From assembly GCA_038734945.1 (NCBI GenBank), contig JAVYOA010000003.1:1-64000 (forward strand): a stretch of 64,000 nt of DNA, written 5' to 3'. The translations under genes were made by a program, and so were the position numbers. The notes beneath the pieces were generated by a model. It worked only from the letters and a program-made list of their open reading frames with translations. It made no database searches and had not been told where the DNA came from. This document shows, piece by piece, positions 1,868 to 32,997 of the stretch (its first letter is position 1; every line of letters starts with the position of its first letter). Origin of the DNA: Fervidicoccaceae archaeon. Lineage in GTDB: Archaea > Thermoproteota > Thermoprotei_A > Sulfolobales > Fervidicoccaceae.

Positions 1868-4429
1868 TCACGCTTCACATGTAGGACATCCTCCTGCATA
1901 ATCCTCTTCAGCAGCCAACATCTCCTTCTTTCCAATTCTGAGCCTTTTCGCCGTTTGTTTAACCTCTCTGAACTCCTCCAATTTTTTCTTTATTGCTTCA
2001 TCGCTCTGCATGCTGCCTTTTTTGGTTACCCCTTTGTTGAGAACCTGTATGCTTTTGCTCTTGTCTCTGTAAACAGTGACTCCCTTTATTCCAAGCTTCC
2101 ATGCTAGCTTGAAGATTTTGCTCACCGTCTCGCTTGGCTCGCTCTCCCTCAGGTTTATTGTCTTGCTCGTCCCAGCATCAACCCATGCCTGCCAAGCTGC
2201 TTGATGTAGCAAATGCCATATGGGATCGATATCGTGAGCTGTTTTGAAAACTTCTTTAAGAGCGGGATCAATACCATCTATTTCCTGAATGGATCCCGTT
2301 TCTGCAATTTTCTCTATGAGCTCTCTCGATCCTTTCCCTCTTCTGTCGAGTTCCTTCATGAACACTTTATCAATCTCCATGAAAGTTCCTACAGATACAA
2401 TTCTCATAAATGCAAGAGCGAACAGAGGCTCAATGCTGCTACTTGTTCCTCCTATTATGCTAATTGTCCCAGTAGGAGCAATACTGGTAACTGTAGCATT
2501 TCTAAGTCCATTCTCCTCGTACAGCCTATCGATCAATGACCAGTCCGGCTTAGGAAGATCCATAGACACCTTTTTCTGAACTTTTATGTTTGCTTTCTCG
2601 AGCAGATCCTCAATTTTTATGGCATCTCTCCATATAGGTCTGTATTTCCTTGGATCGAATGAGGGGAATGGGCCTTTCTCCTTTGCCAAATATATGCTCT
2701 CCAAATATGCGTTGTAGGCTATCCACTCCGAAATCTTGTATCCAAGATAAACAGCATCAACTGAATCGTAGGGAATTCCCAGCATTCCCAACATGTGGGC
2801 CCATCCCATTACACCAAGTCCTATCTTTCTTGTTTTCCTATTGGCCTCTGTTATTTGAGGAAGTGGATGCTTGTTTGCATCTATCACATTATCAAGGAAT
2901 CTCACAGCGATCCTTACATCTTCCCCAAGCCTATTCCAATCAATAGTTAGGCCGCTTTCTCCCTCTACTACGTACTTTGTTAGATTTATGCTGCCCAGAT
3001 TGCAGTTCTCCCAATCAAGAAGTGGTTCCTCTCCGCACGGATTTGTTGAATTTATCTTTCCTAGGTACCATGTGGGATGCCTCCTATTTATTGTGTCGAT
3101 GAAAAGCATGCCAGGATCTCCGCTATCCCACGCACCGTTCACAATTTCCTCGAATAGCTCTCTGGCTCTAACCCATCCAACTATGGCATTTTCATTCTCG
3201 GCTATCGCGAGAGCTTCCTCCCATGTTATTATAGAGGAGCTTGTGAGAGCAATGGACCAGTCATTTTCCTCAAGCTCCTCGTAAATCTCTTCCTGAACCC
3301 ATTCCTCGCTTATGCTATATCTCATCAGCCTTGTAGCGTAGAACCTGCTGTCCAGCTCTTCAGTATTCCTCAGCCAAGTCCTTCTTGGATTAATGAGAGG
3401 CCACATCCCATCCTTCTCTACTGCTTCCATGAACTTGTCATAGATTCCAACGCTTATGTTGAAGTTCTGGAGCACCACGTCCTTCAGTTCTCCCGTTTTC
3501 GCCTTTATGAACTTTCTAATATCTGGATGGAATACATGGAGAACCCCCATATTTGCTCCTCTTCTCTTTCCTCCTTGCTTTATCACCTCTGTAGTTGTAT
3601 CAAAAAGTCTCATGAAGCTGAGAGGACCACTCGCTATACCTTGTGTTGACTTGACTATATCTCCCTCCGGTCTGAGCTCTGAGAAGTCAAATCCAGTTCC
3701 TCCTCCCTGTTGCTGTATGAGAGCCTGGGCTCTCAAGGAATCCATTATGCCGTCTCCCTTTTCAGTTGTAAGGGAATCTCTGACTGGAATAACATAGCAT
3801 GCACTGAGGACACCGTTTCTGGTGCCAGCATTCATGAGAGTTGGTGAGTTTGGCATGAATCGAAGTTCAGAAATTATTTCATAAAACTTTTTTGTATAAT
3901 AATTCTTTTTTTCTTGGTCATTTTCAACTGATGCTATGAAGCTTGCTACACGATAGAACATCATGGAAGGTGTTTCAGCATATCTGAGAGTTTCGTGATT
4001 CTTTACCAAATACCTAGCTTCAAGGACCTTGAGGGCATTGAAGGAGAGCCTGAGGTCCTCTTCCTTGAAGGAGCTCCATTTGCCCTTTCCAAATACATGA
4101 TTGTAAATCCTGCCCAGAACATAGCGCTTAGCTGCTTCTTCCCAAGCTGGATTTTCAATCATCAGAGATATCATGTTTTTTTCCACAAGATCAGAGATCT
4201 GCCATGTCGGTACTTCGTTTCCTCTTAGTCCTACATCTCTTAGAATCTGCTCTAATATCTGCTCTTTCTCTTCTTCAATTATTTGAGATATCCCGTTTGT
4301 GGCCTTTCTAATTGATGCTCTGATCTTCTCCACATTAAGTTCCTCCTTCCTTCCATCCCGCTTCACTACTGTTATCTTCACATCGACAGGACTATCGCCA
4401 TTTTTTGGCTCAATAATTTCCTGTTTCAT
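1868..4429 (-). CDS. nrdJ: Adenosylcobalamin-dependent (class II) ribonucleotide reductase with N-terminal ATP cone
   Basis: VVKRDGR ATP cone, [25 protein letters not shown] thiyl-radical Cys, [14 protein letters not shown]-terminal CPTC. Start moved to ATG 4429 behind a GGTG RBS. No intein seen. Confidence 0.95.
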
Positions 4430-16454: not shown

Positions 16455-17402
16455 CTAGTACAGCACTGAGACGATTATCGGCAATGTTATTGTAGCATCG
16501 CCATAAACAACTATGTGCTTTGCCTCCTTCTTCAGCTTTCCCCACGATATTGCCTCTCTTGTTTGTGCTCCGCTCAAGCTGCCATCATACTCAAAAGCAG
16601 TAGTGAGGTAAACAGCATAGTCTAGACCTCCCTTGAACTGATTCCACCAAATGACGTGGTGTTTGCTTATTCCTCCCCCGATAGATAAGGCAAGGCTTTT
16701 TTCATTAACAGATTCAAATACTAGATCCTCGATCAGTTTTTGATCGAGGGAGAAATCAAGCTCCACGTTGTTCAGCCTACCATATATTAGTGCGTTGGTT
16801 CCAAAGCTACCGTCATAAAATCCGGGAACAATTATCGGAACTTTTCTCTCATATGCAGCTCTAAGTATCGAATTGGGATCATCTATCCTCTTGCCAGCAG
16901 AATAAAGAAGCTCATTTGGAGATATTTTTTTCCCCTTGAACTCCTCCATAATTGTTTTTACGAATGATTCGATCACTGGTCCATAGCTCTCCATGGGAAT
17001 GAGAATGTTTCCTAGTCTATGAATTTCTAGGTCACGAAGCATTAAATCATCTAGTTCAAACCTTCCCCTGAAGTAACCAGGTCCAAGGGATTTAGCTATA
17101 TCATGATCTAGTGTTCCAGTCGTAGTTACTATTATATTGAAATGCCCGTCTCTGATCAGCTTCGCTATTAAACCTCTGAGACCAGTTGATACGATGTTTC
17201 CCGTAAAGGAAAGGAATCTCAATTTGCTCTCTCTTACCCCTTCTTTTAGTATCTCTGCTGCCTCTGATAGATGCCCAGCTGTGAAGCCATGAACCATTGA
17301 ATAGTATCTTAGGAGCTCCTTGCAGCTCCTTAGAACTTCGATGCTGGGGGGATCATCGATGATCTTTTCCCTGATCACGTCTTGTCTTCTCATTCTCTTC
17401 AT
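16455..17402 (-). CDS. dys: Deoxyhypusine synthase
   Basis: SFTGNIVSTGLRG, HRLGNI, GGGISKHH, DGSLSGAQTREAISWGK. Confidence 0.95.
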   Translation of the reverse strand: MKRMRRQDVIREKIIDDPPSIEVLRSCKELLRYYSMVHGFTAGHLSEAAEILKEGVRESKLRFLSFTGNIVSTGLRGLIAKLIRDGHFNIIVTTTGTLDHDIAKSLGPGYFRGRFELDDLMLRDLEIHRLGNILIPMESYGPVIESFVKTIMEEFKGKKISPNELLYSAGKRIDDPNSILRAAYERKVPIIVPGFYDGSFGTNALIYGRLNNVELDFSLDQKLIEDLVFESVNEKSLALSIGGGISKHHVIWWNQFKGGLDYAVYLTTAFEYDGSLSGAQTREAISWGKLKKEAKHIVVYGDATITLPIIVSVLY

Positions 17403-18847
17403 CCCTTCGTGACTCCAATTGGCTTAAGTCTTGCGACCAACTTCGCTATTCCAACTCTATCAGCCACTAGCGCAACCCTATCTACATCCTTGTAAGCAGA
17501 GGGTGCTTCCTCTACTAACACTCCCTTTGAGGCCGCTCTAACATATATTCCCTGCCTATTGAGCTCTCTAATGAGCTGGTCTGCTGTGTAGTTTTTAAGA
17601 GCCTTGGATCTGCTCATCCACCTGCCTGCTCCATGGGGAGCTGTGTACCACGTTCTTTCTCCTTTAGCAGATCCCACAAGAACATAGCTGGCTGTACCCA
17701 TTGAACCTGGGATTAACACTACCTGCCCCACGCTTCTATGATCGCTTGGAATCTCTGGATGTCCGGGAGGAAATGCCCTCGTAGCTCCTTTTCTGTGAAC
17801 TACAAGCCCTCTTCGCTTTCCATTCAAAGTATATTCCTCGTATTTTGCTATATTATGGGCTACATCGTAAACTATTTCCAATCCCAGCTTCTCATCATCT
17901 GTAGATAGGACTTTCTTGAAGGATTCCCTGACCCAATGTGTTATTAGCTGTCTGTTTGTCCATGCGTAGTTTGCTGCTGCTGCCATCGCCTTAAAATAGC
18001 TTTGTCCCTCTTCCGAGTTAAAAGGTATGCTTGCCAGCTCTCTGTCGGGAGGATTTATGCCGTATTTTCTCATTGCTCTCTCCATTATCTGGAGGTAGTC
18101 ACTAGCTACTTGGTGTCCAAGGCCTCTGCTCCCTGTATGTATCATGACTGTGACCTGACCCACGTTGGTAATTCCTATCTGCTTTGCTATCTGCTCATCG
18201 TATATTTTATCAACAACCTGGATTTCAAGGAAATGGTTTCCACTACCTAAGCTCCCTAGTTCTGGAGCTCCTCTGCTTTTAGCCCTTTGAGAGACCTTCT
18301 CGGAATCTGCCACTTTCCAGCTACCTCTCTCCTCAATATGTTCAGGATCTTCATTTCTTCCGTATCCCTTCTCTATTGCCCACTCCACGCCTCTATCAAG
18401 AACCTCATCAAGCTGCGCAGTTGAGACTTTGATTTTCCCCTCACTTCCAAGGCCGCTGGGGACATTTACTGAGAGCTCATCCACTAGGTCCTTTATTTTT
18501 CCTTCAATATCCTTTAGTTCGAGCTCGGTCCTCAACAGTCTTACTCCGCAGTTTATATCGTAGCCAACGCCTCCAGGGCTTATGACTCCCCCTTCCTCGA
18601 CGCTCATTCCAGCCACTCCTCCTATTGGGAATCCATATCCCTGGTGACCGTCTGGCATCACATAGCTTGCCCCCACAATTCCATTCAGACATGCCACATT
18701 TGCTGCCTGTTCGAGTGTCATATCCTCTCTCATCTTTGATAGGAGGAAGTCATCTGCAAATACTACTGCGGGAACCTTCATGCACGGCTTTTCTCCCTTC
18801 TCGATTATCCATTCATAGTCGTTCAATTTCCTGACGTTTACAGGCAC
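17399..18847 (-). CDS. rtcB: tRNA-splicing ligase RtcB
   Basis: PDGHQGYGFPIGG, GVGYDINCG, GSGNHFLE, HTGSRG, HNIAK, HRKGATR, PGSMG, HGAGR, EEAP.AYKD. Confidence 0.97.
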   Translation of the reverse strand: MPVNVRKLNDYEWIIEKGEKPCMKVPAVVFADDFLLSKMREDMTLEQAANVACLNGIVGASYVMPDGHQGYGFPIGGVAGMSVEEGGVISPGGVGYDINCGVRLLRTELELKDIEGKIKDLVDELSVNVPSGLGSEGKIKVSTAQLDEVLDRGVEWAIEKGYGRNEDPEHIEERGSWKVADSEKVSQRAKSRGAPELGSLGSGNHFLEIQVVDKIYDEQIAKQIGITNVGQVTVMIHTGSRGLGHQVASDYLQIMERAMRKYGINPPDRELASIPFNSEEGQSYFKAMAAAANYAWTNRQLITHWVRESFKKVLSTDDEKLGLEIVYDVAHNIAKYEEYTLNGKRRGLVVHRKGATRAFPPGHPEIPSDHRSVGQVVLIPGSMGTASYVLVGSAKGERTWYTAPHGAGRWMSRSKALKNYTADQLIRELNRQGIYVRAASKGVLVEEAPSAYKDVDRVALVADRVGIAKLVARLKPIGVTKG

Positions 18848-23564: not shown

Positions 23565-24293
23565 CTATCTCCCTCTCAAAGCTCTTCTGACAGCAGGGTC
23601 CCTTTCCGCTATTTCCTTCAACTTCTGTTCAAAGCTCTCACCTGTGCTCACAAGCTCGCTTAAGTAAACTCCTGTTCTTCCTATTTTATCCCTTCTACTG
23701 AGAACTCTCATTCTTTCCAAGACTGTTTCGAGGCTTATGCCAAGCAGTGATGCCACTTCCCCCTCCCTTCCTAAAATGCTGGACACCAGATAACCGTGCT
23801 CAATCGGCTTGATCAATTCCAATCTCTTATTGACGCCCAGGACTCTTTTCCCTTCTTGAAGCTCCTCAAGAGAAATTGAACCTCCAAACTTATAGAACTC
23901 AACCTCCCTGCTTTGAAGCCTCGCAAGCGGAAAGCTGACAACTATTAAACCCTCTGGATCTAATGTTATGTATCCCTTTGGAGTGCTCATGGGCGTGGCT
24001 TGAACAATTTTTCGCTCGAACTGCTTGAGCCCAAATCTATCTAGAGCTATTTCTATTATATATGATGGAGTCATATTGAGGACAGCTATATCAACATCGC
24101 TCTTTTCGTGAACATCTCCTCTTGCAACACTTCCGTGGAGAAGGGGATCAGCTCCCGCTTTCTTGAGAGCTTCCATAATTTTTGAGGCAATTTTTCTCTT
24201 CTCCGTGAGAAGCTCTATATCCTTCTGTTCATATAGTATGATCCGCTCATCCAGATTTCTGGATATCTTCTCTCTGACCATCCTGTTCCCCAA
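23565..24293 (-). CDS. Pol-beta superfamily nucleotidyltransferase (archaeal, uncharacterized)
   Basis: HGSVARGDVHEKSDVDI, QATP..TPKGYI, EFYKFGG, GVNKRL, RRDKIGRTGVY. Confidence 0.88.
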   Translation of the reverse strand: MGNRMVREKISRNLDERIILYEQKDIELLTEKRKIASKIMEALKKAGADPLLHGSVARGDVHEKSDVDIAVLNMTPSYIIEIALDRFGLKQFERKIVQATPMSTPKGYITLDPEGLIVVSFPLARLQSREVEFYKFGGSISLEELQEGKRVLGVNKRLELIKPIEHGYLVSSILGREGEVASLLGISLETVLERMRVLSRRDKIGRTGVYLSELVSTGESFEQKLKEIAERDPAVRRALRGR

Positions 24294-24324
24294 TTTCTAC
24301 AAAGAGAGGGGGGAGGAGGCTGGT

Positions 24325-24362
24325 CCAAAGCCCCGCATCCTTGGCCGCTAGACTACCCGGCT
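24325..24362 (-). tRNA. tRNA-Gln(TTG) 5' half (positions 1-37), probable split, trans-spliced tRNA gene
   Basis: AGCCGGG-TA-GTCTAGCGGCCAAGGAT-G-CGGGG-CT-TTG-G: acceptor 5' strand, full D arm, anticodon stem 5' strand and TTG anticodon (24326-24328). It continues into ACCAGCCTCCTCCCCCCTCTCTTT with no T arm and no 3' acceptor strand. Confidence 0.85.
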
Positions 24363-24388
24363 GCTGTCATAAAAGTTAGTTAGGCAAG

Positions 24389-24402
24389 CTTTTAAGTTTT
24401 AG
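24389..24402 (-). promoter_or_regulatory. BRE/TATA promoter of the tRNA-Gln 5' half
   Basis: Minus strand CTAAAACTTAAAAG about 30-40 nt upstream of tRNA position 1, similar to the spacing at tRNA-Pro. Confidence 0.6.
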
Positions 24403-24479
24403 CCCACTCTGAAATGCGGATAACCATCAATATTCACAATGAGATTCTAGGAAATGACTTCATGAACTGAGCAAGGGCT

Positions 24480-24959
24480 CTATTCTTCGCTCTCTTCCTC
24501 TAGCTCCAGTTCCTTTTCCTCTTTAGCTAGCTCCTCCAAGGATGGCTTTCTAGTTGTTTCCTCCAAGAGATCCTCCAGGATTTTTGCATCATCTTCTCTT
24601 ATGTATGGAGCGACTGCTGCAACCCCCCTATCATGATAATTCTCCTCGCTTACTTTCAGACTCTCATAGACTATGAGATACACAGGAAGGGTTGCTATTA
24701 TCGTGTCCTTGCCGGTTCTCTTAAGTCCAAAATCTCTATATCTCGCAATAACTTCTTTATCTGAGCCTACCTTCAGTTCTATTTCTATGGAATCTCTTAG
24801 GATCATGAAGTCGCTAAAAGTTGGTAACCACTCATTCATGAGAAGATCCTTAGCAACGCTCTTAACGACATCCTCCAGTTGACCTTCTAATACTTCCTTC
24901 TTTTTGATCTTACCTGAATGTGCCTGAATTACAATGCAACTCTGCCTTTGAGATGACAT
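24480..24959 (-). CDS. Conserved crenarchaeal hypothetical protein (DUF2286-like)
   Basis: EW.P..SDF.ILRD, LPVYLIVYES, VAPYI pattern; acidic tail. Confidence 0.7.
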   Translation of the reverse strand: MSSQRQSCIVIQAHSGKIKKKEVLEGQLEDVVKSVAKDLLMNEWLPTFSDFMILRDSIEIELKVGSDKEVIARYRDFGLKRTGKDTIIATLPVYLIVYESLKVSEENYHDRGVAAVAPYIREDDAKILEDLLEETTRKPSLEELAKEEKELELEEESEE

Positions 24960-32920: not shown

Positions 32921-32997
32921 GGGGCCGTAGTCTAGCTTGGTAGGATGCGAGGCTTGGGCCCTCGTGGTCCGGGGTTCAAATCCCCGCGGCCCCACCA
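32921..32997 (+). tRNA. tRNA-Pro(TGG), intronless, CCA encoded
   Basis: GGGGCCG/CGGCCCC acceptor stem, CGAGG-CT-TGG-GC-CCTCG anticodon arm, GGTTCAAATCC T loop, ACCA end; TTTTAAA box at about 32885. Confidence 0.97.

Follow-up and report, generated by a model that had tools for sequence, protein, structure and literature searches.

A Fervidicoccaceae archaeon with a putative 5' half gene for a trans-spliced tRNA-Gln(UUG)

An isolated 5' half of a tRNA-Gln gene is found on the minus strand of the 64-kb stretch of Fervidicoccaceae DNA analysed here (the window), where it stops at the anticodon loop and is followed by a C-rich trailer and a protein gene. Is it one part of a tRNA assembled from two transcripts, or what is left of a gene that was broken? 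Read from sequence, the locus very probably encodes the 5' half of a tRNA-Gln(UUG) that is split and trans-spliced. We infer that a partner exists in the genome of this archaeon and that the half is transcribed, cut and ligated.

Anatomy of the 5' half gene

The elements of the locus, and the one tRNA gene of the window with which they are compared, are as follows:

24400–24389 (−38 to −27), minus strand: promoter-like A-run and TATA-like box AAAACTTAAAAG, identified by consensus match only
24362–24325, minus strand: 5' exon of tRNA-Gln(UUG), positions 1–37, identified by direct sequence reading, exon comparison and the uniqueness of a 17-mer
24324–24301, minus strand: 3' trailer read directly as A(+1), a 20-nt C-rich pairing segment and TTT
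32921–32997, plus strand: tRNA-Pro(UGG), the sole complete tRNA gene of the window

The exon, AGCCGGG-TA-GTCT-AGCGGCCAA-GGAT-G-CGGGG-CTTTGG, is built of the 5' strand of the acceptor stem (AGCCGGG), the D arm, the 5' strand of the anticodon stem (CGGGG) and the loop CTTTGG, which holds the anticodon TTG. It measures 38 nt up to G37, because the D loop contains one extra base. Over the 39 nt that include it, two to three differences separate it from the tRNA-Gln 5' exons of four of the loci described below (L002, L004, L005 and L006), all of them at unpaired positions, and seven from that of L001. Within the exon, the sole difference from L005 and L006, which also carry the anticodon UUG, is at the unpaired position 9, and the CUG genes L002 and L004 differ at this position and in the anticodon. 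The original prediction of an undamaged tRNA-Gln 5' half is thus borne out both by direct reading and by its closeness to four relatives. A 17-mer taken from the exon occurs once in the window, against a chance expectation of 0.03 matches. The acceptor strand (7/7) and the anticodon-stem strand (5/5) are complementary to the 3' halves of all seven loci, a complementarity that was demanded by the search pattern and is not independent evidence.

The half was also said to have a promoter of its own. The box AAAACTTAAAAG lies 26 nt 5' of the mature tRNA start, the same offset as that of the box TTTTTTAAAAGG of tRNA-Pro in the window, and similar boxes are located about 26 nt 5' of the L002 and L004 5' halves, so the claim stands at the level of a consensus match. 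Downstream of G37 the gene departs from the tRNA into A-CCAGCCTCCTCCCCCCTCTC-TTT, as had been described, and then reaches a protein gene, an ORF with an NTP_transf_2 domain whose ATG, at 24281, is twenty bases past the TTT. These three T residues are likely the end of the transcript. The A reported after G37 is present, but it is the first base on the intron side, and position 38 would be a C provided by the 3' half. The genes that neighbour the half encode a DUF2286 protein, the NTP_transf_2 protein, a radical SAM protein and pelota.

Neither ARAGORN nor Rfam, at its gathering thresholds or with E values up to 10, calls the 5' half, a silence that is expected for half a gene. Near the locus Rfam returned only chance-level matches, to mir-4672 (E 1.9), sR9 (E 3.3) and snoU6-47 (E 8.1). 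The sR9 match, resembling a C/D-box sRNA, is at 24438–24494 on the minus strand, just 5' of the promoter-like box and overlapping the end of the DUF2286 ORF; its 16.3 bits fall short of the gathering score of 36, and chance is the probable explanation. The mir-4672 match arises because the trailer can pair, at 13 of 16 positions, with the region around the start codon of the NTP_transf_2 gene (24276–24325, minus strand). A hairpin between the two was considered and dropped: the segment 24262–24362 folds at −31.5 kcal/mol, compared with a mean of −34.2 kcal/mol for shuffled sequences (z +0.77), and 156 of 200 shuffles fold at least equally well.

The 3' half in the window and in related genomes

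The window covers 24.3 kb of DNA downstream of the half and 39.6 kb upstream of it, and three types of search found no tRNA-Gln 3' half on either strand of these 64 kb, in agreement with the earlier observation that a T arm and a 3' acceptor strand are missing. The T-loop motif was matched once, within tRNA-Pro, and the scan for a T arm plus acceptor yielded no candidate with a TTCRA-type loop; CCCGGCT occurs in the window solely as the complement of the 5' half. A covariance model made from the seven tRNA-Gln 3' exons described below, run on both strands with filters off, detected nothing beyond tRNA-Pro, whose 3' part scored 23.4 bits, and one match at noise level (7.3 bits). The 16-mer complement of the trailer is found in the window only at the locus itself, and neither exon nor trailer has a second copy within the 64 kb. 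Since the window contains no 3' exon, the gene is neither cis-spliced within 24.3 kb nor permuted, and within these 64 kb the other half is not contiguous with the first. What closes the trailer is a T-run, with no same-strand 3' exon in the 24.3 kb beyond it, an arrangement that does not fit a cis intron.

The genome collection was scanned once, with a pattern that opened with GGCTGG, which is complementary to the six trailer bases next to the bulge, and continued with 4–12 free bases, CCCCG, 8–10 free bases, the T-loop consensus and CCCGGCT. This pattern, which is unable to match the window's own locus, retrieved seven loci (L001–L007), all of them from Thermoprotei, and ARAGORN called a tRNA in none of the seven. 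The CCA end is encoded in all seven tRNA-Gln 3' exons, as it is in the tRNA-Pro(UGG) gene of the window.

Two of the loci, L003 from a Thermoprotei MAG and L007 from a Fervidicoccaceae MAG, are orphan tRNA-Gln 3' halves, around which no 5' half was found within 2 kb on either strand with up to 9 mismatches. Both are laid out as GGGGTTGAGGAGGCTGG-GGAG-AT-C-CCCCG...GTTCGAATC...CCCGGCT-ACCA, and each has an A-run and TATA-like box from −39 to about −25 relative to the leader block, with different intervening bases. The separate 3'-half gene that had been predicted, with a leader close to GAGAGGGGGGAGGAGGCTGG-RRRG-NN and an exon ending in CCCGGCT, therefore has its counterparts in L003 and L007, with the spacing of a bulge-helix-bulge, in genomes related to that of the window and other than it.

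In L002 and L004, from Acidilobaceae MAGs, both halves of a split tRNA-Gln(CUG) are present, with a promoter-like box and a complementary leader:

L004, 5' half at 1759–1797 and 3' half at about 1990–2055: split tRNA-Gln(CUG), separation about 165 nt
L002, 5' half at 36–74 and 3' half at about 1989–2053: split tRNA-Gln(CUG), separation 1.9 kb

The L004 spacer is formed by about 165 nt of AT-rich DNA that follows a T-run and contains an internal promoter-like box, and the 1.9 kb of the L002 spacer accommodate genes for a PfkB-family kinase and a DeoC/LacD-family aldolase on the opposite strand. The trailer/leader helices of these two loci have 17 bp or more. L005 and L006, of Pyrodictium type, are contiguous tRNA-Gln(UUG) genes with a 32–33-nt intron at 37/38 that starts with CCCAGC and ends with GGCTGGGAGGAA. 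In L001, from a Sulfolobales MAG, both tRNA-Gln parts lie about 40 nt apart (about 2000–2115, minus strand); the 5' part diverges right after C32 and TTTGG appears some 30 nt further on, which points to two or more introns or to an intron at a non-canonical position.

Alignment of L003 and L007 reveals 63 consecutive invariant columns, comprising the 23-nt leader, the exon, the CCA and two further bases. The first G of the leader is also the first base of the invariant block; the leader is 100% identical in the two loci, and upstream of it 48 of 115 positions (42%) are invariant. The proteins encoded on the flanks, an XerA-type recombinase and an XPF-type nuclease, are 65% and 61% identical, respectively. 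These divergences place L003 and L007 in well-separated organisms, in which the leader has been preserved no less strictly than the body of the tRNA. A leader this conserved implies a partner 5' half with a trailer resembling that of the window, as its conservation would make sense only if it paired with a 5'-half trailer, and the window half looks to be of exactly that kind.

Further features were observed around the orphan 3' halves. Each is surrounded by a perfect 11-nt inverted repeat (2001–2011/2062–2072 in L003 and 1974–1984/2036–2046 in L007), one arm of which is the splice-site part of the leader and the other is situated in the final codons of the convergent XPF/ERCC4 gene. The repeat is retained despite only 61% identity of the XPF proteins, and it could reflect self-folding of the 3'-half transcript or be the trace of a rearrangement. 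L007 also has a 109-aa TnpB remnant with a Cas12f-like TNB domain (2283–2612, minus strand) between the 3' half and the XerA gene, which is missing at the equivalent place in L003.

Regarding the origin of the window itself, its pelota protein is 65% identical to that of a Fervidicoccaceae MAG and 51% identical to that of Fervidicoccus fontis, with lower values for other Thermoprotei, which points to a Fervidicoccaceae-like source, that is, the family of L007. The window and the L003/L007 loci have no gene in common, and a comparison of XerA relatives found no link between the window genome and L003.

Trailer/leader pairing and the predicted splice junction

When the window half is folded together with the leader of L003 or L007, two segments of its trailer are engaged:

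24323–24313, minus strand: trailer positions +2 to +12, CCAGCCTCCTC, outer helix of the predicted bulge-helix-bulge (cofold)
24310–24307, minus strand: distal CCCC, which can pair with the initial GGGG of the L003/L007 leader (cofold)

The segment CCAGCCTCCTC is the perfect complement of GAGGAGGCTGG in the L003/L007 leader, and a 2-nt C/U mismatch (24311–24312) separates this 11-bp helix from the distal CCCC. A complementary leader had been anticipated along the full 20 bp; what is found with L003 and L007 is 11 bp, the 2-nt mismatch and then 4 bp. Only the 6 bases of the helix that lie beside the bulge were demanded by the search pattern, so that the 5 further complementary bases, the GGAG central strand and the spacing of 7 nt, where 4–12 were allowed, are independent of it. 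The duplex of the trailer with the L007 leader has an energy of −32.9 kcal/mol, compared with a mean of −18.9 kcal/mol (sd 2.6) for shuffled trailers, none of which reached so low a value in 2000 trials.

Cofolding of the complete window half with the 3' halves of L007 and L003 gave −75.5 and −74.9 kcal/mol, respectively, in a structure that contains the acceptor stem, the anticodon stem and the trailer/leader helix of 11 plus 4–5 bp. The halves can be placed in a register in which two 3-nt bulges, G36-G37-A and A-U-C38, flank a 4-bp helix between C32-U35 and the GGAG of the L003/L007 partners, as had been expected of a bulge-helix-bulge. This modelled geometry, obtained with partners from related genomes only, is the canonical one for a 37/38 junction. 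The GGAG strand would form two G-U pairs with C32-U35 in a UUG tRNA and one in a CUG tRNA. The canonical hBHBh' form lies 2.8 kcal/mol above the local minimum free energy (MFE), which uses a slipped register; this is not counted against the reading, because the Pyrodictium cis intron, a real splicing substrate as judged by its gene structure, slips likewise in the energy model when used as a control.

The following course of events is proposed. The 5' half would be transcribed from its own promoter up to the T-run, and its trailer would pair with the G-rich leader of a 3' half that is encoded elsewhere in the genome and transcribed separately. The trailer/leader helix, together with the acceptor stem (7 bp) and the anticodon stem (5 bp), would then create a helix-bulge-helix-bulge-helix at 37/38, with a predicted 5' bulge G36-G37-A, a central helix between C32-U35 and GGAG, and a 3' bulge A-U-C38. 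Both bulges would be cut by the splicing endonuclease, and G37 would be joined to C38 by RtcB, the ligase that joins tRNA exons in archaea. A gene for this enzyme is present in the window:

17399–18847, minus strand: RtcB-family RNA ligase gene (NCBIfam RtcB models, E down to 1.2e-217)

Its role at this locus is assigned by analogy with established archaeal tRNA splicing, and RtcB would act here in trans. The 5.5 kb that separate the RtcB gene from the 5' half may be a proximity due to chance.

The Pyrodictium-type genes L005 and L006 share with the window half the exon sequences, the intron position and the CCAGC/GGCTGG helix by the splice sites, and differ from it in being single contiguous genes with a 32–33-nt intron. 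Because that helix is identical in the cis intron, the ancestor from which the split derived was most likely a tRNA-Gln gene interrupted by a canonical intron. Some of the complementarity between trailer and leader could have been inherited from the common intron rather than kept by selection.

Competing explanations and known split tRNAs

Were the locus a dead remnant, an ancestral tRNA-Gln gene would have been rearranged through its intron, leaving a non-functional 5' fragment, and an intact tRNA-Gln(UUG) gene would lie elsewhere. The 2-nt mismatch with the L003/L007 leader would fit such an event, and the pairing as such could stem from a cis intron like that of L005 and L006; yet the exon shows no damaging change, differing from those two at position 9 only, and a promoter-like box is retained at the standard offset. 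In addition, the L003 and L007 3' halves keep a fully conserved leader beside proteins of 61–65% identity, which is hard to explain unless such 5' halves are used in the family, and we regard a remnant as unlikely. Hardly any credence is given to a misreading of the DNA itself, either as an assembly artefact with a false join near 24324 or as a cis gene with a giant intron of more than 24 kb. A false join would not yield a trailer that is both closed by a T-run and in register for pairing with the leader conserved in related 3' halves, and the 24.3 kb downstream of the half, which a giant intron would have to span, are occupied by housekeeping genes on both strands and contain no 3' exon.

Archaeal tRNA genes are frequent targets of integration, a point discussed in PMC4390854, and a virus or plasmid that integrated into tRNA-Gln could have left a partial copy of the gene as an attachment-site remnant. 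A tyrosine recombinase gene does adjoin the 3' halves of L003 and L007. It was initially taken into account as a sign of an integrated element and then dropped, given that these recombinases score 221 and 210 bits on the NCBIfam XerA model (cutoff 220) and that their relatives in F. fontis and Ignisphaera carry the name XerA; they are of the chromosomal type, and their position is syntenic between the two diverged genomes. Among the 64 window ORFs of at least 80 aa, none belongs to an integrase or transposase family, and the half is flanked by core genes, which include those for pelota, topoisomerase VI, RtcB, TFB, ribonucleotide reductase, the proteasome, XPB, deoxyhypusine synthase, ThyX and aRF1. 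The fragment is unrepeated in the window, the segment 24295–24410 has no match in phage or plasmid collections, and a promoter of its own and a pairing trailer are normally missing from attachment-site remnants. We consider this origin very improbable, and a trans-spliced 5' half accounts best for the locus.

The mechanism proposed for it is the established one; what appears to be new is a Gln isoacceptor split at 37/38 in Thermoprotei. The organisms that the original prediction had named as carriers of split tRNAs (Nanoarchaeum, Caldivirga, Aeropyrum, Thermosphaera and Staphylothermus) agree with PMC3218864 and PMC4033280. According to the 2014 review by Fujishima and Kanai, 29 trans-spliced genes with 12 anticodons were known from seven genomes (PMC4033280). 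According to the prediction, no split tRNA-Gln was known from crenarchaeotes, and a literature search covering freely readable main texts gave none in Thermoprotei and none other than that of Nanoarchaeum equitans.

A close parallel is the split tRNA-Asp of Aeropyrum and Thermosphaera, described by Chan, Cozen and Lowe 2011 (PMC3218864) as split at 37/38 with halves about 160 nt apart. It shares with the window half the crenarchaeal host, the canonical 37/38 position, a promoter for each half, a G/C-rich leader on the 3' half and a bulge-helix-bulge at the junction, and it is also thought to derive from an intron-containing gene. Its halves, however, are separated by about 160 nt, as in L004, whereas the partner of the window half would be more than 24 kb off or elsewhere, and both the amino acid and the lineage differ. 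[quoted passage not shown]

The same isoacceptor, tRNA-Gln(UUG), is made by trans-splicing from two distant half genes in N. equitans, where the split is at 32/33 according to Table 1 of PMC3218864 and PMC4390854. That organism is a nanoarchaeon with a reduced genome, in contrast to the Thermoprotei lineage of free-living type considered here, with its split at 37/38. The two splits are almost certainly independent events, because position and lineage differ. In the free-living crenarchaeon Caldivirga maquilingensis, split and tri-split tRNAs have pieces common to several isoacceptors, with no Gln case listed among them, as reported by Fujishima et al. 2009 and relayed in PMC4033280. Such sharing is a possibility for the L003/L007 3' half, whose GGAG strand is able to pair with the loops of both UUG (CUUU) and CUG (CUCU) tRNAs.

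Split tRNA genes are rare, and the question of whether tRNAs were first made as halves or were broken up later turns largely on them. With a split tRNA-Gln at 37/38, Fervidicoccaceae and Acidilobaceae bring a new isoacceptor and new lineages into this discussion, and the graded series of tRNA-Gln genes, from a cis intron through adjacent halves and halves two genes apart to distant halves, supports the derivation of such splits from introns. As standard tRNA finders miss both halves, the genomes of these lineages would look as if they had no tRNA for CAA codons. A wider reading, which we put forward tentatively and which may well prove too broad, is that the window half belongs to an old split tRNA-Gln system common to the whole family Fervidicoccaceae and paralleled by another in Acidilobaceae, a system that would predate the divergence of genera and in which a single 3' half would possibly serve both UUG and CUG 5' halves. 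If this were true, every stage in the fragmentation of a tRNA gene would be found for one tRNA in living genomes, from the contiguous Pyrodictium-type gene through the Acidilobaceae halves, with their separations of about 165 nt and 1.9 kb, to the half described here.
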